Positions 175-9,688 of a DNA stretch of 12,447 nucleotides are shown piece after piece. Position 1 is the stretch's first letter. Every line of letters starts with the position of its first letter. Under the pieces are notes generated by a model. The model was not told the origin of the DNA and ran no database searches. It was given only the letters and a program-made list of their open reading frames with translations. The position numbers and the translations under genes are program-made. The DNA is from a virus: the UHGV virus genome UHGV-1611333. One strand, 5' to 3'.

Positions 175-199
175 CCCCGGCCTGGCCGGGGCTTTTTTA
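175..199 (+). terminator. Intrinsic terminator between convergent genes
   Basis: GC-rich hairpin CCCCGG-CCTGG-CCGGGG followed by CTTTTTTAT on the + strand. It sits between the 3' end of the + strand fragment and the stop codon (197-199) of the minus-strand gene. Confidence 0.6.
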
Positions 200-682
200 T
201 GCCTCATTAGTTGAGGTTGCTGCGTCTCCGACTGGTAACAGAGCTGTATTGCGTGGTTCGCCAGCAGGCCAGCGATAGCCAGACACTCTTGATGTTGGGA
301 ATGCGCGAATATTAACAGCATCCCCCTGGTTCCCACCCAAGACAAGCAGATCGCCATTGGCGCGGCGTCCGACAACAAAGCCTACATGCCCACCGCCTGC
401 GCGAGTAAATACAACGATACATCCGTATGCCGGTGTATCTAATTTCTCGCCCCAATCCAGATAGGATTTTGCCGACTCAAATCTTGTTGAGCGGATACCT
501 ACACGTTCCAGCATTGCACCAACAAATGCAGCGCACCACGGCGTTTCATCGTCTTTTATTCCGCCGCGCTTAATATCCCGCCAGAACTGGACGATCTCAG
601 GATTGTGTTTCGCTCCTTTTATTTCGGTGACACCAATATTTTTACGGGCTTCAATAAGCCAGCGAGGTTCATTATTGATCAT
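197..682 (-). CDS. Putative peptidoglycan hydrolase, CHAP/NlpC-P60-like (TIGR02594-like) protein
   Basis: 163-codon ORF on the minus strand. It has a conserved Cys context (ETPWCAAFVGAML) and a downstream His context (GGGHVGFVVG), typical of CHAP-type cysteine peptidase folds in phage and conjugative-element proteins. The GGAG Shine-Dalgarno is only 1 nt from the first ATG (686-688) but 7 nt from the second ATG, so the start is probably 682. Confidence 0.7.
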   Translation of the reverse strand: MINNEPRWLIEARKNIGVTEIKGAKHNPEIVQFWRDIKRGGIKDDETPWCAAFVGAMLERVGIRSTRFESAKSYLDWGEKLDTPAYGCIVVFTRAGGGHVGFVVGRRANGDLLVLGGNQGDAVNIRAFPTSRVSGYRWPAGEPRNTALLPVGDAATSTNEA

Positions 683-688
683 AATCAT

Positions 689-875
689 GCTCCGAATAAA
701 AAAAGAGCAATAACTATGTTGAGAATGTGATTTCTATTACACCAAACATTATTAAACGGCATTCATCTTTAACTTTATTCAATGTATTATCTAACAGAAA
801 AGTTAAACTGCGCTAAGTTAGTGATAACATTGGTCATTGTTAGCTTGCGTTATCTATTTGAGTAAAGAGATTGTC
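689..875. promoter_or_regulatory. AT-rich divergent intergenic region, presumed to carry promoters for both flanking genes
   Basis: 187 bp AT-rich spacer between divergently oriented genes. It contains several GTTAG/CTAAC elements (about 792-797, 818-822, 839-843). No single -35/-10 pair could be assigned with confidence. Confidence 0.3.
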
Positions 876-1373
876 ATGAAAAAAGCAATATTAGCGACTA
901 TTGTTTGTGCATTTGCATTATCAGGATGTGCTCCGGTTCAGACATACAACAAGCCTCAGCAAGTAAAACAGTTTGTTAAACGCCCAGCATTCCCTGTAGA
1001 GGAATATCAGGCATTGCCGAAAAAAGGTACAGGTAAGGTTAAGGGGGAGTTATTTGGAGTAACTCGCGGAGGGGATGTGAAGATTGGTGCTGGCTCCAAT
1101 ATCATACTGCGTCCGTATACTTCATATATCAAAAATACCCCCAAAATTGATTACGACACTCAGACCTTAGAAATAATCGACGGCAGGGTTGCGGAATATG
1201 ACAGAACTGTCCTGACAGATGCTCAAGGCAAATTTGAGTTCGAAAACGTACCACCAGGCCAGTATGAAGTGATTGGTTCGTTCAGTTGGTATGCTGGAAA
1301 TTTCCCGCAAATCGTTCTTCTGAAAAAAATCATTACCGTTAAGAACGGTGATGTTATCCAGGTTCAACCATGA
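876..1373 (+). CDS. Lipoprotein with a probable beta-sandwich (carboxypeptidase-regulatory-like) domain
   Basis: N-terminus MKKAILATIVCAFALSGC has a signal peptide and lipobox L-S-G-C. AAAGAG lies 6 nt upstream of ATG 876. The C-terminal motif GKFEFENVPPGQYEV resembles carboxypeptidase-regulatory/transthyretin-like folds. The ORF track start at 837 lacks an RBS and would place hydrophobic residues before the signal peptide. Confidence 0.8.
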   Translation: MKKAILATIVCAFALSGCAPVQTYNKPQQVKQFVKRPAFPVEEYQALPKKGTGKVKGELFGVTRGGDVKIGAGSNIILRPYTSYIKNTPKIDYDTQTLEIIDGRVAEYDRTVLTDAQGKFEFENVPPGQYEVIGSFSWYAGNFPQIVLLKKIITVKNGDVIQVQP

Positions 1374-1436: not shown

Positions 1437-1474
1437 CAAACCGTACCGCTTAAGGCGGATTTAACGGTTTTGAG
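1437..1474 (+). terminator. Terminator-like two-tier hairpin directly upstream of the giant gene start
   Basis: CAAACCGT-ACCGC-TTAAG-GCGG-ATTTA-ACGGTTTT: outer 7-bp stem, inner CCGC/GCGG stem, then a TTTT run. It lies after the lipoprotein stop and ends at the first possible start codon of the giant ORF. Confidence 0.4.
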
Positions 1475-1484
1475 GGGGCTTCCT

Positions 1485-4400
1485 TTGGACAAAATAATTG
1501 ATTCAATTAGCCAGGCCACCAGCATTGGGGCGCTGATTGAAATTGTTAGTCGGTTGCATAAACCGCGAGCTGTAGTGACCTTTGGCGTTAAGAAAGTTGA
1601 TGGCGTCAGTATTCAGAAAACACGCCGGGCAGCAAACAACGCCGCAGTAGATCTTCTTAATTCCCTTCCGCCCGGCTTCGATGGGGCGAAATTAACTGAC
1701 GAACAGCGCCAGATTCTTGCCGGGTATACCGGTGAAGGCGGCCTGACAGATGGTGAGGGCAGCCAATACGAATACTACACGCCACAGTTTATGGCAGAAG
1801 GTATATGGGATCTCTTCGGCGACTACGGTATTGATGGCGGTCACGTACTGGAACCATCAGCGGGCACAGGTATTTTCCAGGAGACAAAACGGCAGGGCAT
1901 GATAATGACCAGCGCCGAACTGTCTCCGATTTCCGGTCGAATAAACCAGCTTTTGCACCCGGAAGACGATGTGAATATTGGGGCGTTTGAGGCGCTGGCG
2001 GCGAAAGACGCAATGTATGACCACGCTGTTGGTAACGTACCGTTTGGTGAAGGGCGTTCCGGCGTTGCCGGGCTTGATCCGGCATATGCAAACGAGAAGA
2101 ACGTTGGCAATTACTTTGTGTTGCGCACGATCGACAAGGTTAAGCCTGGTGGACTAATTGTATTGGTGGTGCCGAATGGCATGACCGATGGTACGAAATA
2201 CAAAAAATTGCGCGATAAAGTCAGCCGTAAGGCGGAATTTTTGGGCGCGCATCGTATGCCTTCTGGTACGTTCAGCGAATCCGGTACAGATACCGTGGTG
2301 GACGTATGGGTATTGCGTAAACACCCGGAAACCTTCCTGGAGATGATCCCCGACACGGATGATGCAACGCTCAAATCGGCAAACGTCCTTTGGGATACCT
2401 TCCTCAAAGGGAAATGGTTTACAACCGAAGGGAAGCGATTTGTTTACGGCGACATGGAACGCACCAGCTTCCGCAATACCCTGGTGGTGAAAAAGGACGG
2501 TCGTGTATCCAATGAGTCGATGAAAACCGCGTTATCACGCCGCTTTGAAAGCCGTATTAATTGGGATTTGCTCGGAGTAACTACCCAGGCATGGCAGGGC
2601 GCAAAAGTAGGGGATAAGCGCCTTGTAGGCGGTATCTGGCATGAGTTTGATGGCCTGAAATGGGTTAAGGACACGACAACCAAATCCTCCGCGCTTGATG
2701 TAAGTCGATATGGTGTTTCGACGTTTGGCGATCTGCAGATCGCGTTCCAGTCAACAAACGGGATTCTGGCTTTGTCATGGGACCAGATATCGGCGATCGC
2801 GTCCGACTATCCATCGGTTGTCAGTGATGAAGTGGCAGCAATGATTCGCTTTGCTGGCAAACAGCGAGAAAAAGACAGGGAGCGCGTTATGCGCGGTGCG
2901 TTGATAGGGCAGTTGATCAACAAGGCACTTGATTTGCGTAACCTGGGGGTGAACGTTGATGACAAACTGGCAGATGCATCCCGCCTGGCGGCAGCAGAAG
3001 TTGCGAAGTATGGACCACCGCACGCGATTAAGCTGAATGGGCTTGCAGAAGCTGGAGCTAAAAACTGGATGACGTTCACTGGCAACGTGAAACAGGATGG
3101 TTCCACTTCTGACCTTCTGGCAGGGCGACTTGATGTAACGGATGGTGCTGCCGGTATTGACTTTACACGTCCGGAACAAGTGATAGCACATCTTTTCAGT
3201 GATGTAGCCCTTAATCCTATAACGCTGGGCGACTTTCGTGAGGCGTTTGCTGGTGAACTGCCAGAGGACGACGACGCGGCCCTTGAATACCTGGCGAAAT
3301 TTGATGATATCGCTATTGATGGGTATGGCTGCCTGCTGCCGATGGACCGCGCCACCAGCGGCGATATTGCAACCAAAACAGCATTGCTGATGGGCTGGCG
3401 TGATGCGTCAACAGGTGAGCAGAAATCGAACTTTGAGCGTCAGTTGGCGAAAATCGAAGAGAAACGCATTTTCACGCCACTAAATAAAGTCACCGTTAAT
3501 CTGAACGCCCGCTGGCTGGATCGCCGCTTGATAAAAGAATTCCTGGCAGAGCAGGGCTATGACGAGTTTAAGTACACTGAACCTGATCTGAAGATCGTCG
3601 ATGGCATTCTGGTATCTCCGGACGATTACGAAGGTAAGGACGGGGTATTTACCGGCTATCAGCTACGAACCGTAAACGGCAAAAACGGGAATGAGTTCAA
3701 GAAGGCCAACAATAAAGACGGCTTCCTGAACCAGTTAGAAAACTACCTGAACGGTGTTAAACCGCGTGGGCAGAACGCTAACGAGTACCTGGATAAAATT
3801 GCTCAACTGGAAGTTAGTTTTAACGACTGGTTACGCACTCACCCGCAGGCTGATCAGATAGCCCGCGAGTATAACGACGCATTCAATGGCTTCATTCCGT
3901 TCACGCACTCTAACGCACCGCTTGGCCTGGAAGGGATTAGTGGAAAGCGCATTCCTCTGACTTATCAGAATGAAGAAGTTCGTCGCTTGTCAGAAGATGG
4001 GCGCGGCATCATGGGATTTGGTACCGGGCTGGGTAAAACCACGACCGCGCTTGCGCTTGAGGCGTATAACTTCGAAACAGGTCGCACTAAACGCACGTGT
4101 ATTGTTGTTCCGAAGGCGGTTTATCAGAACTGGTATCACGAGGCACAGAGCTTCTACAGTGCTGATGCCTTCGCAAATATGATGTTTATCGGTCTGGATG
4201 AAGTTCGTGATGAAGACGGCAATATTCTGACCGCGCCGGTGCTTGATGAAAATGGCGAACCCCGCCTCGACAGTAACGGGCAGCCTCTTACCAGAAATGT
4301 TGTGAAAGAGTCCGCCAGCGCCGTTATCGTTCAGCGCATGAACATGATCCCGTCGTCAAATTGGCGAACGATCATCATGACAAAAGAACAATTCGCGTCT

Positions 4401-7400
4401 ATCCCGCTACGAGAAAAAACCATCGAGGAGAACTCACAGCAAGCTGTCTTTAATGCTGTGGAAATGGGGCGTCTTGATCTGGCGTCCGGTAAACACCGTG
4501 ATGCGCAGAAGAAGAACAAGATTAAGGATCAGGCCGCGAATACCGGTACAACGAAGAAGCAGAATATCCCGTACTTTGAGGATATGAACTTCGATAGCGT
4601 GATTGCCGACGAGGGGCATAACTACCGCAACTCCTTTAATGCCGGGCGTGAAGCGGGACAACTGGCATATTTGCCTAACCCGGCAGTATCCAAGATGGCC
4701 CGCGACATGGCTGTAAAAGCTGCGTACATGATGAAACGCAACAACGGGCGTGGTGTAGTCATGCTGACGGCAACACCGCTGGTGAACAGTCCGATTGATG
4801 CCTTCAACATGCTGTCTACTGTCATTCCGCAGGAAGAGTGGATGCGCATGGGCATCATTACGCCTGATGATTTCGTTCGTGTGTTTGGTAAAACAGCCAC
4901 AGTTCAGGTCCAGAAAATTTCCGGGGAAGTGGAAGAGAAGCAGGGGCTGGTTGGCTTCCAGAACCTTGATGGCCTGCGTGGTATTTTCCATCGCTGGACT
5001 ACTCTGAAGACTGCTGCGGACGTCGGGGCGACGGTTAAAATCCCTGATATTGTCGAGAATACCTTGCAGATCCCGATGACAGGGGAGCAGGAGGCTGCTT
5101 ATGAAGAGCTTCGTAAGCGTGCACAGGAGTTAAGTAGTAAAGATGCGCTGACGGTTGATGAAAACGGGCATATCACAAACGAAAAACCGGATGATTTCAT
5201 CTTCTCCATCATCCGCGACATGGATAAGGTTGCTATAGATCCGGATCTGTATGCCAGTGCGATTACATTCCAGTTCCCCGTTGAGCTTGCAGACAAGGTA
5301 AAAGCTATTGCTGATGCCCTGCCAAAAGTAGCTGGCGGTAAAGTGGCAGATGATGCAGACGAGGCCGAAGAAGACGGCGCTGGTGGACTGGTTAGTACGC
5401 GCACCAGTAAGGTAGTGAAGACCACCTTTAGTGAACATCCGGCGCATGTTGAAATACGCGCCAGCATTGAACTGGAAGCTGAAATACTGAGGGCCATTGC
5501 TGCCGCCGGGATTGATCTACAGCAGGTATCACACCCCATCCCGCCGAAGTATGCCGCGCTGATCGAAAACCTTCGTGAAGGTCTGAAGAACGGTAAACAA
5601 ATTGTCTTCATTGATGAAAAAGCCCAGCACCAGAAGCTGCGCCGTATTATCGCCAGTGCACTGCAAATGCCGGAGCAGGAGATAGGCATTATCAATGCGA
5701 CGACCGTTAGCCAGGCTGGCGGCATCAAGCTGAAGAAGGTGAATAAGCCGACTGAACCTACTCCGAATAAAAACGGTGAATACAAAGAAGGGGCATGGGA
5801 AACCTACTACAGCAAACTTGCCCAATATGAGGATTATCTCTCAGCTAAAAATGATGCTGGCCTTGAGGGTATGGAAGGCATTGCCGCCGACTATAACGAA
5901 GGGCGCACGCGCATCATTATCTGTAACAAGAAGGCTGAAGTAGGTATTAACCTGCATATCGGGACAACCGATATCCACCACCTGACACTACCCTGGACAC
6001 CAGCCAGTATCGACCAACGAAATGGGCGCGGTGCGCGCGTAGGCTCACCGCAAGAGAAGGTCAATGTTCACTACTACTGTGGCAAAGGCACATTTGATGA
6101 TTTCCGCCTGGATACGCTGAAACGCAAGAAAGACTGGATCAAGATGGTGATGACCTCCGACATGTCAGAGATCGCCAATGGTGATGCGGATGATGCAGAT
6201 GAACGCGCCATTATGCTGGCAGCAAACCCGGAAGAACGCCGCGCAATCATGGCTCGCCAGGCACAAGAGCGTGAAGAACGTCTGAAACTGAAAGCACAGC
6301 GCGAGGCCAACAATGCTCTCGATATCTACCTGAAAGCGGCAAACGCCGCCGGAAAAGATATCGGCATGATGGAGACAGAACTGAAAAGCGCGATGGAACA
6401 GATAGAGTATTATCAGCGCAATCTTGACGACCTGATAAAAGCGGGTACGAACAGGAATGGGCAAAAATACGCGCTTGAGCAGTTGAGTAGCTACAGAAAA
6501 CGTGCGCGGGTGCTGCGGTTTGCGATCACCAGGGCAAAAGACGCGGATACCATTATGAAACGCTCTCGTGGTGATGTGGAACGCGCTATTAAGTCTGGTG
6601 TGCTGGATATCAGCATCGATGTTATTCAGAACCCGCAAGAATATATGCGCACTGACAAGAACATTCTGTTGCATAAAGGTAGTTATTACCGTGCAGTCAT
6701 TGATGATCGCGAAACAACAGCGATTGTCCGGGTGGAAAAAATTGACGGTGAAAAAGCACAATACCTCTGCCGTATCGCCTGGCTGGATAGAGCAAGTCGT
6801 TACGCTCGAGCACCGGGGTCAATCGTTACATTGCCGTTTGACTCTGTGATTGAAGCGGTAACTTTTGAAGAGGGGGTAGCTGAATCGCGCGCAACGGCTG
6901 CGCGTGGTGTTCAGTGCCACCAGCTATCAACAATACTTACTCGCGATCAGTTCTATGATGCTATTCGCAATGGGGTAATGAATGTTATTGCTGGTAAATC
7001 TGGTAATGCATGGGGCGGTGGGTCAGCTATTAAATACTGGGCATATCGCACAGATGATGGTCAGATCGCGCTGTCATCGGCCTATGATGGCGTGATAGGC
7101 CAAAAAATCGGGCGAGCATCGGATATAGCACCTGAGCGATGGATATATCCTGATGGCAACGACGAGGCGCTGAAGCGTGAAGTGGCAAAAATACAAGCCA
7201 GTGATAACCCGCTGAATATCGTGGACGGCGAGGGATTCCTCCAGGCATTGTATGGGTATGATTACATCCAGGGAATGCAGGCATGGGGCGCACAGGCAAC
7301 GATGGATGATGTTGCCCAGGAGTTCGAAAACTGGATGGCTGGGCGTGGTCTGTCAGGTCGTTCGCTTAATAAAGTCACTTCTGAAGATATTCTTAGCTTG

Positions 7401-8321
7401 TTCCGCAAACCGTCCGGAGAAGGTCTGGAATCATTCTGGAGGACCGTGCTGGCATACCGTTTATTCCAGGGCAGGATGAAAGCCTTTAGCAATATCGATG
7501 ATATTGAACGGATGTTTAATCAGGTCAAGATAGCGAAAATTAAGACGAAGATCGAAAAAACACGTTCTGCGCTGGTGGCCTGGCGCGATGCATTGTTTGA
7601 GCAATATAAATCACTCAGTGATGCAGATGGATGGGCGGCACTGGAACAGTTGGCGAATAATGGGGTAGATGGAGCGAAACTCGCCATTGTCCAGGCTGAT
7701 AACCCCCTGGAATCACCGGCAGCACAGTGGATTAAGGTGGGGGCTGTCATCAATGCATTTGATGAAAAACACATTAGTAAGGACGATTTTGCTGATGCTG
7801 TTTCTGTTAATCGCCTGGTAGAAATGGCTACCCGCCGCGCCCGTGAGTTGAAAGACGGTGACTATGTGAATGAGTTGCCGGATGCGCTCAAATCAGCAAC
7901 GTGGCAAGACTATGTATCGCTGAAAAACGGCGGGGCCACCGAATCAGAGATCGCGGAAAGGCTTGAACAGGCTGAAAGCAAAAGAGAAGAGCAGGCGGCA
8001 GTGGCTGAAGCCAGAGCTGATGAAGCGGCGAATGATGACTATATCATTGTGGTTAATGATAAGCCGATTCGCGCTAAGGCGCGTGTTCGCGGGCGCTGGT
8101 GGAGCGTCAGCGAGGACGTCGGTGCGGTTTATCTCATTGCCGACCAACCTGGTTCCTCGACAATACGGAACGCCAAAGACGCGATTAAGAAGATTGGCGG
8201 GCGTTTCTGGAATTTTGAAGCAAACCCGGTTGCTGATGTGAACTTTGACCGTCCGGCATGGATGGTATCTACGCGTTACTCGGTAGATGAACTGCGTAAA
8301 ATAATCGCCGATGCGGCCTAA
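1485..8321 (+). CDS. Giant fused N6-adenine DNA methyltransferase / SF2 helicase protein (phage P1 DarB-like antirestriction architecture)
   Basis: 6.8-kb uninterrupted ORF. Methyltransferase motif I VLEPSAGTGIF (about nt 1848-1874) and motif IV GNVPFG (2031-2048). Helicase Walker A GFGTGLGKTT (about 4011-4040), DEGH box (4605-4619), LTATPL motif III and motif VI QRNGRGARVG (6015-6044). The C-terminal ~700 aa are coiled-coil-rich with no recognised motifs. The ORF is open from TTG 1470, but TTG 1485 has a GAGGGGG Shine-Dalgarno 6 nt upstream and is the more likely start. Confidence 0.9.
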   Translation: MDKIIDSISQATSIGALIEIVSRLHKPRAVVTFGVKKVDGVSIQKTRRAANNAAVDLLNSLPPGFDGAKLTDEQRQILAGYTGEGGLTDGEGSQYEYYTPQFMAEGIWDLFGDYGIDGGHVLEPSAGTGIFQETKRQGMIMTSAELSPISGRINQLLHPEDDVNIGAFEALAAKDAMYDHAVGNVPFGEGRSGVAGLDPAYANEKNVGNYFVLRTIDKVKPGGLIVLVVPNGMTDGTKYKKLRDKVSRKAEFLGAHRMPSGTFSESGTDTVVDVWVLRKHPETFLEMIPDTDDATLKSANVLWDTFLKGKWFTTEGKRFVYGDMERTSFRNTLVVKKDGRVSNESMKTALSRRFESRINWDLLGVTTQAWQGAKVGDKRLVGGIWHEFDGLKWVKDTTTKSSALDVSRYGVSTFGDLQIAFQSTNGILALSWDQISAIASDYPSVVSDEVAAMIRFAGKQREKDRERVMRGALIGQLINKALDLRNLGVNVDDKLADASRLAAAEVAKYGPPHAIKLNGLAEAGAKNWMTFTGNVKQDGSTSDLLAGRLDVTDGAAGIDFTRPEQVIAHLFSDVALNPITLGDFREAFAGELPEDDDAALEYLAKFDDIAIDGYGCLLPMDRATSGDIATKTALLMGWRDASTGEQKSNFERQLAKIEEKRIFTPLNKVTVNLNARWLDRRLIKEFLAEQGYDEFKYTEPDLKIVDGILVSPDDYEGKDGVFTGYQLRTVNGKNGNEFKKANNKDGFLNQLENYLNGVKPRGQNANEYLDKIAQLEVSFNDWLRTHPQADQIAREYNDAFNGFIPFTHSNAPLGLEGISGKRIPLTYQNEEVRRLSEDGRGIMGFGTGLGKTTTALALEAYNFETGRTKRTCIVVPKAVYQNWYHEAQSFYSADAFANMMFIGLDEVRDEDGNILTAPVLDENGEPRLDSNGQPLTRNVVKESASAVIVQRMNMIPSSNWRTIIMTKEQFASIPLREKTIEENSQQAVFNAVEMGRLDLASGKHRDAQKKNKIKDQAANTGTTKKQNIPYFEDMNFDSVIADEGHNYRNSFNAGREAGQLAYLPNPAVSKMARDMAVKAAYMMKRNNGRGVVMLTATPLVNSPIDAFNMLSTVIPQEEWMRMGIITPDDFVRVFGKTATVQVQKISGEVEEKQGLVGFQNLDGLRGIFHRWTTLKTAADVGATVKIPDIVENTLQIPMTGEQEAAYEELRKRAQELSSKDALTVDENGHITNEKPDDFIFSIIRDMDKVAIDPDLYASAITFQFPVELADKVKAIADALPKVAGGKVADDADEAEEDGAGGLVSTRTSKVVKTTFSEHPAHVEIRASIELEAEILRAIAAAGIDLQQVSHPIPPKYAALIENLREGLKNGKQIVFIDEKAQHQKLRRIIASALQMPEQEIGIINATTVSQAGGIKLKKVNKPTEPTPNKNGEYKEGAWETYYSKLAQYEDYLSAKNDAGLEGMEGIAADYNEGRTRIIICNKKAEVGINLHIGTTDIHHLTLPWTPASIDQRNGRGARVGSPQEKVNVHYYCGKGTFDDFRLDTLKRKKDWIKMVMTSDMSEIANGDADDADERAIMLAANPEERRAIMARQAQEREERLKLKAQREANNALDIYLKAANAAGKDIGMMETELKSAMEQIEYYQRNLDDLIKAGTNRNGQKYALEQLSSYRKRARVLRFAITRAKDADTIMKRSRGDVERAIKSGVLDISIDVIQNPQEYMRTDKNILLHKGSYYRAVIDDRETTAIVRVEKIDGEKAQYLCRIAWLDRASRYARAPGSIVTLPFDSVIEAVTFEEGVAESRATAARGVQCHQLSTILTRDQFYDAIRNGVMNVIAGKSGNAWGGGSAIKYWAYRTDDGQIALSSAYDGVIGQKIGRASDIAPERWIYPDGNDEALKREVAKIQASDNPLNIVDGEGFLQALYGYDYIQGMQAWGAQATMDDVAQEFENWMAGRGLSGRSLNKVTSEDILSLFRKPSGEGLESFWRTVLAYRLFQGRMKAFSNIDDIERMFNQVKIAKIKTKIEKTRSALVAWRDALFEQYKSLSDADGWAALEQLANNGVDGAKLAIVQADNPLESPAAQWIKVGAVINAFDEKHISKDDFADAVSVNRLVEMATRRARELKDGDYVNELPDALKSATWQDYVSLKNGGATESEIAERLEQAESKREEQAAVAEARADEAANDDYIIVVNDKPIRAKARVRGRWWSVSEDVGAVYLIADQPGSSTIRNAKDAIKKIGGRFWNFEANPVADVNFDRPAWMVSTRYSVDELRKIIADAA

Positions 8322-8357
8322 CAGATAGGGAGCGGCCCCATCCGGGGCCGAATTTGA

Positions 8358-8792
8358 ATGACGACATTAATTGACACTGTAAAACCGACGGAATCCTACC
8401 TTGAGGATATTTTGCCGCAGGCGCTCAATGGCAGGAGTGAAGAGGCGTTTCTGGATGCATATCTGGATGGTATGGTGGAAAGGCTGAAACGAGATCCACA
8501 GCTTTATCATCTTTATGGCCCGTGGTGGCCTGCGCTTAAAACGTTATTGCTGGAGCGCGGCGACATCTCATTTGGACAAGTTGTAGATAGTGATGTGGCA
8601 GAGATCTACAAAATGAGTCGCCCGGCGCTTACGGTTTTATCCGGGCATCTGTATTCGAGCGATCGCCTGGAAAATGACGCGGTATACAATCCCGTTCATG
8701 CTCTGGAAGTCGCGCCTTATGCTGATGATACAGAGCCATACGTGTACACAAGTTACGACGAGTCGATAGAGAAATATCGAATCATGGGGTAG
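8358..8792 (+). CDS. Hypothetical protein (144 aa)
   Basis: ORF starts 36 nt after the giant gene stop, in the same orientation. No recognisable motif. No obvious Shine-Dalgarno; a GC hairpin (8333-8350) sits between an upstream AGGGAG and the ATG. Confidence 0.55.
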   Translation: MTTLIDTVKPTESYLEDILPQALNGRSEEAFLDAYLDGMVERLKRDPQLYHLYGPWWPALKTLLLERGDISFGQVVDSDVAEIYKMSRPALTVLSGHLYSSDRLENDAVYNPVHALEVAPYADDTEPYVYTSYDESIEKYRIMG

Positions 8793-8794
8793 CT

Positions 8795-9055
8795 ATGCGA
8801 AAGAATCGTAGGTTTACGATCGACGACTTAAAAGCGTACTCACAAGGGAAGGGATACGCCCTTGAATACCACCGTTATAAGCGGGTATTTACCCTGCGGC
8901 ATATAAAAAACCCTTCGAAATGGGGATGGATTTATTTTCCGCACACTGACGATAAGCTGGTGGGCCTTGTTGATGATTTATCCTATGAAGGATGGATGAT
9001 CGCTATCGACAAGGCGGTTACAGAAATTAACGAACCGGATAAAATAAACCATTAA
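8795..9055 (+). CDS. Hypothetical protein (86 aa), translationally coupled to the upstream ORF
   Basis: ATG lies 2 nt after the stop of the 144-aa ORF (ATGGGGTAGCTATG), with GGGG serving as a Shine-Dalgarno. Basic N-terminus; no recognised domain. Confidence 0.5.
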   Translation: MRKNRRFTIDDLKAYSQGKGYALEYHRYKRVFTLRHIKNPSKWGWIYFPHTDDKLVGLVDDLSYEGWMIAIDKAVTEINEPDKINH

Positions 9056-9061
9056 AAATAA

Positions 9062-9097
9062 CAAGTTGGGTAAATGACATACAATTTACCCGGCTTG
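9062..9097. other. Strong hairpin after the 86-aa gene
   Basis: CAAGTTGGGTAAAT / ATTTACCCGGCTTG arms (about 14 bp with two G-U pairs) and an 8-nt loop. The flanking A/T tract lies upstream on the + strand, i.e. a U tract on the minus-strand transcript, so it could stop antisense transcription or stabilise the + strand 3' end. Confidence 0.4.
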
Positions 9098-9178
9098 TTG
9101 ACCCGCATCACCATTTACTCTAAAAACAAGTCCGACCTGTTGCATACGCCTATCTCTTTAGTAGTATCCCCCCTGATT

Positions 9179-9206
9179 TTGATAAAACTAACGCTCTTGT
9201 TATTAT
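9179..9206 (+). promoter_or_regulatory. Candidate sigma70 promoter for the VRR-NUC operon
   Basis: TTGATA (9179-9184), 16-nt spacer, TATTAT (9201-9206). A second weaker candidate is TTGACC (9098-9103), 17-nt spacer, TAAAAA (9121-9126). Confidence 0.4.
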
Positions 9207-9230
9207 CGTAATCCTGATTTCAGGAAGTTT

Positions 9231-9240
9231 GTGTTAGAAA
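9231..9240 (+). promoter_or_regulatory. Copy 1 of the recurrent GTGTTAGAAA motif
   Basis: GTGTTAGAAA sits 4 nt upstream of ATG 9245 and about 25 nt downstream of the candidate -10, i.e. an operator-like position in the 5' UTR. Confidence 0.4.
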
Positions 9241-9244
9241 TTTG

Positions 9245-9688
9245 ATGCGAAGACGCAGGCATCATAGTGCGTATTCTGAAATATCCCCGCACGCTGCTGC
9301 ACTAAGAGAGTTAGAAAGAAATCCTGACTTACTAAAAAGGAATTTCGAACATTACGAACAGGTTCGCGTTCTGGATTGGCTGTATCGCAACATGCGATAC
9401 GTGTATGAACACACACACTCAACACCGAACGGCGGCCTGAGAGGCAAAAGGACAGCCATTAAGATGGTGGCAGAAGGTCAGAAGAAGGGCTATCCGGACC
9501 TTTCTATTGACCTTGCTCGTGGTGGGTATCACGGAATGCGCATTGAGATGAAGCACGGGAGAAACCGTCTGACTCCCGAACAGCTTGTCTGGATGACCCG
9601 CCTCACGGAAGCAGGCTATTACTGCTTTGAGGCGCGCAGTGCCGATGAAGCCATAAAAGCTATCACGGAATATGTAAATCTTGATTAA
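9245..9688 (+). CDS. VRR-NUC domain nuclease (PD-(D/E)xK superfamily)
   Basis: N-terminal EQVRVLDWL element and catalytic core GYPDLSIDLARGGYHGMRIEMKHG (PD ... E-x-K) encoded at about 9487-9555. The ORF track starts at TTG 9242; ATG 9245 is used here. Confidence 0.75.
   Translation: MRRRRHHSAYSEISPHAAALRELERNPDLLKRNFEHYEQVRVLDWLYRNMRYVYEHTHSTPNGGLRGKRTAIKMVAEGQKKGYPDLSIDLARGGYHGMRIEMKHGRNRLTPEQLVWMTRLTEAGYYCFEARSADEAIKAITEYVNLD

Follow-up and report, generated by a model that had tools for sequence, protein, structure and literature searches.

What are the two small open reading frames (ORFs) that directly follow a giant gene in the virus genome UHGV-1611333, how are they translated, and do they serve the giant protein encoded upstream? 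The window analyzed here (the whole stretch of 12,447 nucleotides (nt)) carries them at positions 8322-9055, and a first-pass annotation made from the sequence had described them as possible accessory subunits of a methyltransferase-helicase. Its account of the ORF coordinates and sizes, the 36-nt and 2-nt gaps, the AGGGAG element, the hairpin without a U tract and the lack of a Shine-Dalgarno (SD) sequence at normal distance was confirmed in the sequence, but it overlooked that the arrangement is the one known from phage P1 as darB-ulx-lxc. The coding features of the locus are:

1470-8321, plus strand: giant ORF, 2283 amino acids as listed, TAA stop at 8319-8321

8358-8792, plus strand: ORF1 (ulx), ATG to TAG, 144 amino acids, 36 nt after the giant ORF

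8795-9055, plus strand: ORF2 (lxc-like; D6 orf13; phrog_6844), ATG to TAA, 86 amino acids, 2 nt after ORF1

We read positions 8322-9055 as the last two genes of a conserved operon of the darB-ulx-lxc type, and we give a probability of about 0.7 to the joint reading in which ORF1 acts as Ulx, ulx is translated from a split ribosome-binding site (RBS) and ORF2 has the role of Lxc. The locus as a whole is known biology, described for P1 and annotated in phage D6; three modest additions appear to be new, namely the recognition of D6 orf13 as an Lxc homolog, how deeply DarB and Ulx are paired, and a candidate split RBS.

At the nucleotide level, the region shares 90% identity with Escherichia phage D6 and 95-98.5% with eight ~90-kb plasmids of E. 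coli and E. marmotae, which are non-mobilizable; for the other plasmid matches listed the value is 87-93%. Judged by these identities, the window is part of a D6-like, P1-related phage-plasmid of Escherichia. The D6 annotation shows the same order, with orf15 ('similar to P1 gene darB'), orf14 ('similar to P1 gene ulx') and orf13 (hypothetical), and downstream of orf13 lie pmgM-, pmgR- and pmgS-like genes that match the downstream ORFs of the window. The giant protein matched phrog_1685 from end to end with 3491 bits and contains the Pfam domains N6_Mtase, SNF2-rel_dom and Helicase_C; on this domain evidence the giant gene is a DarB homolog, i.e. a predicted anti-restriction protein consisting of an N6-adenine methyltransferase and an SNF2-type helicase. 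The true darB start is probably the TTG at 1485 rather than the listed TTG at 1470, because GAGGGGG (1472-1478) sits 6 nt before it, D6 annotates 2278 and not 2283 amino acids, and the PHROG profile aligns from residue 7.

ORF1 matched phrog_1629 ('Ulx-like anti-restriction') over residues 3-144 with an E value of 1.9e-58 and is 98.6% identical to D6 orf14 and 46% identical to both P1 Ulx (BLASTP E 4e-44) and P7 OlxA. By these profile and pairwise matches it is a Ulx/OlxA ortholog, as already annotated in phage D6. ORF1 cannot extend further upstream, as an in-frame TGA occupies 8355-8357. The ratio of nonsynonymous to synonymous divergence (dN/dS) was 0.04-0.13 for ORF1 and 0.13-0.23 for ORF2, the latter denoting purifying selection, and these ratios together with the conservation of both frames rule out that they are spurious ORFs. 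The Ulx family comprises about 129 clusters at 90% identity under varying names (olxA, Ulx, 'peptide-binding protein'), the last being the NCBI name for some members without evident basis; the organisms named in the source records are all Enterobacterales, save one partial 'Bacillus sp.' entry. An AlphaFold 2 (AF2) model of Ulx was mostly helical with a small beta hairpin and reached a predicted local distance difference test score (pLDDT) of 94.6 and a predicted template modeling score (pTM) of 0.89. Foldseek found no structural neighbor of the model in the PDB (best E value 0.75, TM-score 0.28), the Ulx profile matched none of the PDB sequences, and a Pfam search returned no match for ORF1 or ORF2. 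The fold of Ulx is predicted with confidence but has no relative among solved structures.

The Ulx of P1 belongs to the virion head, where it is among six Dar proteins detected (PMC9024508 Table 1; PMC12810830; PMC10695390; PMC12707154). It is listed as a protein that 'aids DarB localization' (PMC9024508, Table 1) and 'enhances incorporation of darB' (PMC10695390), and it is needed for protection against EcoB/EcoK (PMC9024508, PMC12810830, PMC10695390, PMC12707154). By analogy, Ulx of the window would be made together with DarB, packaged into the head and needed there to incorporate or position DarB, which, placed in this way, would protect the injected DNA against type I restriction. The idea of accessory subunits hence holds up in part: ORF1, as the counterpart of the DarB helper of P1, is by this analogy an accessory factor of the giant protein, for which the status of a stoichiometric subunit goes beyond the P1 data, whereas ORF2 is of the Lxc type, is missing from a distant clade of DarB-Ulx loci and co-varies with the repressor C1, as detailed below.

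The first-pass annotation had also proposed co-expression with the giant gene and had named gene-neighborhood conservation around homologous giant genes as the way to check it. That comparison was run, and the gene order was kept almost throughout, in support of linkage and co-expression. At loci found through Ulx, a long ORF ends 30-42 nt upstream in 97 of 98 cases; in one Rosenbergiella locus the gap is 88 nt. At loci found through the DarB helicase motif, Ulx lies directly downstream in all 77 assessable loci of the P1/D6 clade, with a small third ORF after ulx in 76 of them. In a second, distant DarB-like clade, sampled as viral contigs, a Ulx-like gene follows in 76 of 77 loci, mostly at ~0-30 nt from the stop, and a third ORF in none of the 77; this clade resembles loci in Burkholderiaceae and Nitrosomonas genomes, in two of which the giant ORF matches DarB at an E value of 3e-30. 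Because of these pairing counts in both clades, DarB-Ulx is, as far as gene order tells, an old, obligate gene pair, and the third gene an addition of the enterobacterial P1/D6 clade. Separately, one locus from Xenorhabdus hominickii (L099) carries a truncated Ulx of 118 amino acids with no giant ORF upstream and has probably decayed.

How ulx is translated is a question posed by the 36-nt junction between darB and ulx, which contains two elements:

8327-8332, plus strand: SD-like AGGGAG (core GGAG at 8329-8332), directly abutting the hairpin

8333-8350, plus strand: RNA hairpin CGGCCCC-AUCC-GGGGCCG, with a perfect 7-bp GC stem (8333-8339/8344-8350) and a 4-nt loop

Read 5' to 3', the darB stop TAA is followed by CAGAT, AGGGAG, the hairpin, AATTTGA and the ulx ATG, so that the stem starts 11 nt after the darB stop. 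No SD-like motif is present in the 7 nt before the ORF1 ATG. The stem is followed by AAUUUGAAUG, with no U tract, and the terminator scan did not call the hairpin; an intrinsic (Rho-independent) terminator at 8333-8350 is ruled out by the missing U tract. In other lineages, the tails 3' of the hairpin are A-rich or mixed. An Rfam search over 8000-9400 gave no match, the hairpin included.

A GC-rich hairpin of at least 6 bp (stems of 6-8 bp) was found in 44 of 45 distinct darB-ulx junctions of the P1/D6 clade, compared to 3.8% of shuffles and 6.0% of random 45-nt windows. A 66-nt segment of the window folded with a z-score of -2.0, and those of relatives with -1.1 to -3.7. The only intact junction without a hairpin is that of a Rosenbergiella locus (L093), where the gap is 88 nt long and AT-rich. 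About 11 stem types were distinguished, among them CGGCCCC/GGGGCCG (the window), CGGCCUC/GAGGCCG, CGCCCGG/CCGGGCG (P1), GGCCCAG/CUGGGCC, GCGCUCA/UGGGCGC and UGCGCCCU/GGGGCGCA; the loops are of the GNRA type in 19 of the 44 hairpins and UUCG in two. Covariation was determined on a loop-anchored, ungapped alignment of 16 nt with 24 distinct hairpins; whole-junction alignments made with MAFFT were not structure-consistent, leaving this 16-nt alignment as the only usable one. All 144 cells were paired, which is partly so by construction, and five of the six pairs had changed on both sides (40 cells). The covariation score was 0.84, compared to 0.21 in shuffles, none of 500 shuffles scored as high, and sliding the register destroyed the signal. 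Seven cells were G·U pairs, which would be A·C mismatches on the opposite strand, and for this reason the hairpin is assigned to the sense-strand RNA.

While the stem sequence varies, the SD-like motif does not: 42 of 42 distinct junctions share G-G-A, and the G that ends the motif is conserved to at least 90%. In all lineages GGAG lies 0-2 nt 5' of the stem, no other SD-like motif is found near the ATG, and the distance from stem to ATG is conserved at 5-10 nt. Between the 3' end of GGAG and the ATG lie 25 nt in the window and 22-30 nt in the lineages as a whole; looping out of the hairpin shortens this spacing to 7 nt and 5-12 nt, respectively. In three relatives that lack the hairpin (L100, L102 and L104), the ATG is preceded at 5-8 nt by a strong SD-like motif, either GAGGA or a G-run. 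A comparable geometry has been described for genes 38 and 25 of phage T4, in which a hairpin between SD and AUG cuts the spacing from 22 to 5 nt and from 27 to 11 nt, respectively, and enhances initiation; these structures are present only in close relatives of T4 (PMC3014915). We propose that the folded GC hairpin just 3' of GGAG loops out and puts GGAG at a workable distance from the ulx AUG, so that ulx would be initiated from a split RBS as are T4 genes 25 and 38. Given the observed structure, covariation and geometry, a split RBS is the most likely function of the hairpin, a reading we favor with somewhat better than even confidence as far as its effect on translation is concerned. The earlier suggestion that the hairpin brings AGGGAG and the ATG together has thus gained comparative support from its occurrence in 44 of 45 junctions, the covariation and the spacing.

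Two other explanations of the hairpin were weighed. The better of them holds that 8333-8350 is chiefly an intercistronic element of stability, processing or attenuation, i.e. a barrier to 3' exonucleases or a weak terminator with no positive role in ulx initiation, which would shield the long darB mRNA and hold ulx and ORF2 at a lower level. Hairpins without a U tract are known stabilizers at intercistronic sites. A GC-rich, clade-conserved hairpin 11 nt past the darB stop with stable tetraloops is what such a role would look like, and it is compatible with a split RBS, so both could hold. As a terminator, the hairpin lacks the U tract and the call by the scan, and a stability element needs neither the invariant GGAG abutting the stem, nor the conserved stem-ATG distance of 5-10 nt, nor the lack of a second SD; the hairpin-less relatives, moreover, have an SD at normal distance instead. 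We consider it unlikely that stability is the chief role of the hairpin.

Slightly less likely still is that ulx is translated mainly by termination-reinitiation from darB, with the hairpin holding or pausing the ribosome and GGAG serving as a tether. The darB-ulx gap is short and conserved (30-42 nt), and the stop lies 6-13 nt before the stem, which implies that a terminating ribosome must melt the 5' arm of the stem. In addition, in the minimum free energy (MFE) fold of the window, the SD region AGGGAG is part of a helix with the final codons of darB and its stop (GCGGCCUA, 8313-8333), and termination would open this helix. Such an SD-masking helix is not predicted in P1 or in other lineages. 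Reinitiation across 30-40 nt is generally inefficient. The geometry, finally, suits direct binding of the 30S subunit as in T4 gene 25, which is likewise intercistronic (PMC3014915). The split RBS is the preferred explanation of how ulx is initiated, to which coupling by reinitiation may add a component.

ORF2 is preceded by a signal of its own:

8786-8789, plus strand: weak SD-like GGGG for ORF2, 5 nt before the ATG at 8795, within the last ulx codons

The product of ORF2 matched phrog_6844 with an E value of 8.5e-47, and it has few relatives, namely five clusters by word search and 11 matches among 1.8 billion protein representatives in an exhaustive hidden Markov model (HMM) search. Immediately 3' of ulx, and in its orientation, every P1/D6-clade lineage contains an ORF of 79-98 amino acids at a distance of -4 to +15 nt, and the sequences of these ORFs form a continuum. 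A phmmer search from the window ORF2 finds all non-P1 types, and the versions from Serratia, Erwinia and Rosenbergiella bridge ORF2 and the P1 Lxc types. When these intermediates were included in an iterative HMM search against a database of 3751 ORFs from all fetched loci, P1 Lxc was reached in round 2 with an E value of 2e-5, and 52 of 52 matches were the ORF after ulx, with no false match. Alignment of the two sub-family profiles with hhalign gave a probability of 95.3%, a P value of 2.3e-8 and a score of 45.6 over 71 collinear columns, compared to 9.4 for the reversed control and 19.8 for the best of 30 column-shuffled controls. A search of the Lxc family intended for profile building yielded mostly frameshifted P1 copies as diversity and was unusable. 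On the profile evidence, ORF2 is a remote and strongly diverged Lxc homolog. The AF2 model of ORF2 consists of a helix, three strands and a helix (pLDDT 74.6).

Lxc is the P1 corepressor of C1, and its function has been described (PMC8546580). In a study of D6-like plasmids, Lxc 'was not detected' and a different lysogeny mechanism was inferred (PMC6799933); the predicted Lxc homology of ORF2 contradicts this inference of a lysogeny control set apart from that of P1 by a missing Lxc. D6 orf1 is annotated as 'similar to P1 gene C1', and a partner for a corepressor is thus at hand in the element. We propose that ORF2, translationally coupled to ulx, acts as co-repressor of the element's own C1, and that its target would be C1, held more stably at the C1 operators, and not DarB. 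A search of the window for the P1 C1 operator consensus, allowing up to 3 mismatches, was negative. As an observation on P1-type relatives, four loci (L064, L065, L067 and L094) contain a sequence close to the C1 operator directly 3' of the lxc stop (TTGCTCTAATAAATTG compared to the consensus ATTGCTCTAATAAATTT), of which none was found in the window.

The link to C1 was followed in 17 D6-like contigs that hold both ORF2 and C1, the C1 gene lying ~9-10 kb from ORF2; the C1 gene of the window's own replicon sits outside the window. The allele classes of ORF2 and C1 agree in 16 of the 17 contigs, which are non-independent and represent about four classes. The pairwise divergence of ORF2 correlated best with that of C1 (r = 0.946), followed by pmgS (0.72), the adjacent ulx (0.66) and the DarB C-terminus (0.55), and no other gene in the comparison diverges as fast as ORF2 and C1. 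The window and D6 share 96.5% nucleotide identity in ulx (synonymous divergence, dS, of 0.15) and 77% in ORF2 (dS ~0.8). Over all comparisons dS amounted to 0.8-1.35 for ORF2 and to 0.07-0.33 for darB and ulx (0.13-0.33 for ulx), and this jump therefore places a sharp recombination (mosaic) boundary exactly at the ulx/ORF2 junction, as observed for the window and loci L107-L132. With the homology and the co-variation with C1 as observed, the role of a co-repressor for C1 is the most likely one for ORF2. That ORF2 is instead a third anti-restriction component acting with DarB and Ulx (a chaperone or packaging adaptor), its Lxc similarity reflecting common descent without a shared role, is improbable: it would suit the tight coupling to ulx (gap of -4 to +15 nt in 76 of 77 P1/D6-clade loci) and the failure to detect a separate promoter inside the window ulx, but ORF2 is missing from all 77 distant DarB-Ulx loci, its P1 homolog has a defined C1 function (PMC8546580), the P1 virion proteome paper lists Ulx and DarB as detected and leaves Lxc unmentioned (PMC9024508), and the ORF2 alleles follow C1 and not ulx or darB, with the recombination boundary at the ulx/ORF2 junction.

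A number of points weigh against the joint reading of the locus and are reflected in its probability. All functions assigned to the window element are carried over from P1 or T4. In the covariation alignment, each hairpin found served as the anchor, which accounts in part for the complete pairing, and the independent support comes from the chance control; the stems may also have been swapped wholesale and not have changed by stepwise compensation, and a hairpin in this place, just behind a stop codon, might as well serve mRNA stability. Direct comparisons of ORF2 with P1 Lxc were negative, with no similarity in BLASTP (E value 5) and a probability of 0.2% when a D6-only profile of five sequences was aligned to P1 Lxc with hhalign, and none of the 11 matches from the D6-only exhaustive HMM search of 1.8 billion proteins was Lxc. 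The case for homology is a transitive one, made through profiles in a database of small size. Fold searches with the ORF2 model in BFVD and the PDB returned nothing below an E value of 0.04 and did not retrieve Lxc. P1 annotates the promoters P1lxc, P2lxc and P3lxc inside ulx, and no sigma-70-like site was detected in the window ulx (8358-8792) by a consensus scan at threshold, which weak promoters could escape; this makes the expression of such a lysogeny factor in lysogens harder to account for. Finally, one contig (L132) departs from the agreement between ORF2 and C1 alleles, and the co-variation draws on the few, non-independent allele classes mentioned above.

The downstream end of the operon is marked by two further features:

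9059-9100, plus strand: 17-bp hairpin just past the ORF2 stop, without a U tract and with two U·G pairs on the plus strand

9179-9206: sigma-70-like promoter, the best in the region (TTGATA, 16 nt, TATTAT, with an extended -10 TG), upstream of a VRR-NUC/pmgM-like gene at 9242-9688

The hairpin at 9059-9100 has an MFE of -22.4 kcal/mol (z = -5.3), with none of 200 shuffles as stable, and is kept in D6-like relatives and not in other lineages; it is a probable 3' boundary or stabilizer of the darB-ulx-lxc-like unit. The promoter-like site suggests a separate transcription unit for the pmgM-like gene. Because the hairpin is followed by this site, darB, ulx and the lxc-like gene probably form one transcription unit ending near 9100. 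The -22 box of P1 late promoters (AAGTGACT) was not enriched and had no match near the operon. Upstream of darB, the window contains a CHAP-domain peptidoglycan hydrolase resembling D6 orf16 (197-688, minus strand) and a lipoprotein-like protein with a transthyretin/CarboxypepD_reg-like domain (837-1373, plus strand), the latter being a gene that the D6 annotation lacks at this position.

Phage-plasmids of the P1- and D6-like kind are widespread in Enterobacterales, and resistance genes are increasingly part of their cargo; the host range of these elements hinges on Dar anti-restriction, and their carriage on the C1 immunity circuit. The results refine the annotation of such elements and provide hypotheses, and current understanding is not overturned. 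As the DarB-Ulx unit is deeply conserved well beyond P1, Ulx is an obligatory partner to be studied together with DarB. The Lxc-type gene predicted in D6-like elements corrects the published inference on their lysogeny, and the ORF2-C1 allele pairs can serve questions of immunity specificity. A broader picture, to which we give a little less than even odds, is that every P1/D6-clade phage-plasmid, those described as lacking one among them, has an Lxc-type corepressor that has hitch-hiked onto its anti-restriction operon and whose alleles are swapped with C1 as a dispersed two-part immunity cassette, in addition to a split RBS setting the DarB:Ulx ratio. If true, the tuning of the lysis-lysogeny decision by Lxc would be a general feature of P1-like and D6-like elements and not a peculiarity of P1, and the split RBS at the P1/D6-clade darB-ulx junction would set the ratio at which DarB and Ulx are produced. 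The junction is a compact, covariation-supported candidate for a mechanism so far documented mainly in T4 and, if the reading is correct, would constitute a second natural, phylogenetically supported case of the T4 gene 25/38 type, outside the T-even phages.

Among the closest known systems is D6, whose orf15-orf14-orf13 (MF356679; Gilcrease and Casjens 2018) are directly orthologous to the genes of the window at 90% nucleotide identity, the difference being that ORF2 is only 72% identical to D6 orf13 and represents a different allele (dS ~0.8, compared to 0.15 for ulx). With P1, in which the cluster unites the Dar anti-restriction system and the ImmT corepressor, the locus shares the order and strand of darB, ulx and lxc, a DarB-like giant gene and a Ulx that is 46% identical; the darB-ulx gap is 33 nt in P1 and 36 nt in the window, and lxc overlaps ulx by 4 nt in P1, whereas ORF2 follows it at +2 nt. 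In both, GGAG, a GC hairpin of 7-8 bp and the ATG precede ulx in this order. The two differ in the stem sequence (CGCCCGG in P1, CGGCCCC in the window), in ORF2, which lacks BLAST-detectable similarity to P1 Lxc, in the genes that follow the cluster (EcoP1 mod/res in P1, pmgM/pmgR/pmgS-like morphogenesis genes in the window) and in the lxc promoters inside ulx, for which no counterpart was detected in the window. P1 Lxc (Bof) and ORF2 are alike in length (82 and 86 amino acids), in their position right after ulx, in a collinear profile over 71 columns and in the presence of a C1-type repressor in the element; their identity is about 15-20%, and the function of ORF2 is a predicted one. To T4 genes 38 and 25 there is no sequence relation, the phage family and the gene are different, and the T4 structures were proven by mutagenesis and probing, whereas the darB-ulx site is put forward by comparison; what the systems share is an SD more than 20 nt from the AUG, a stable intervening hairpin and an intercistronic site, kept in close and absent in distant relatives.

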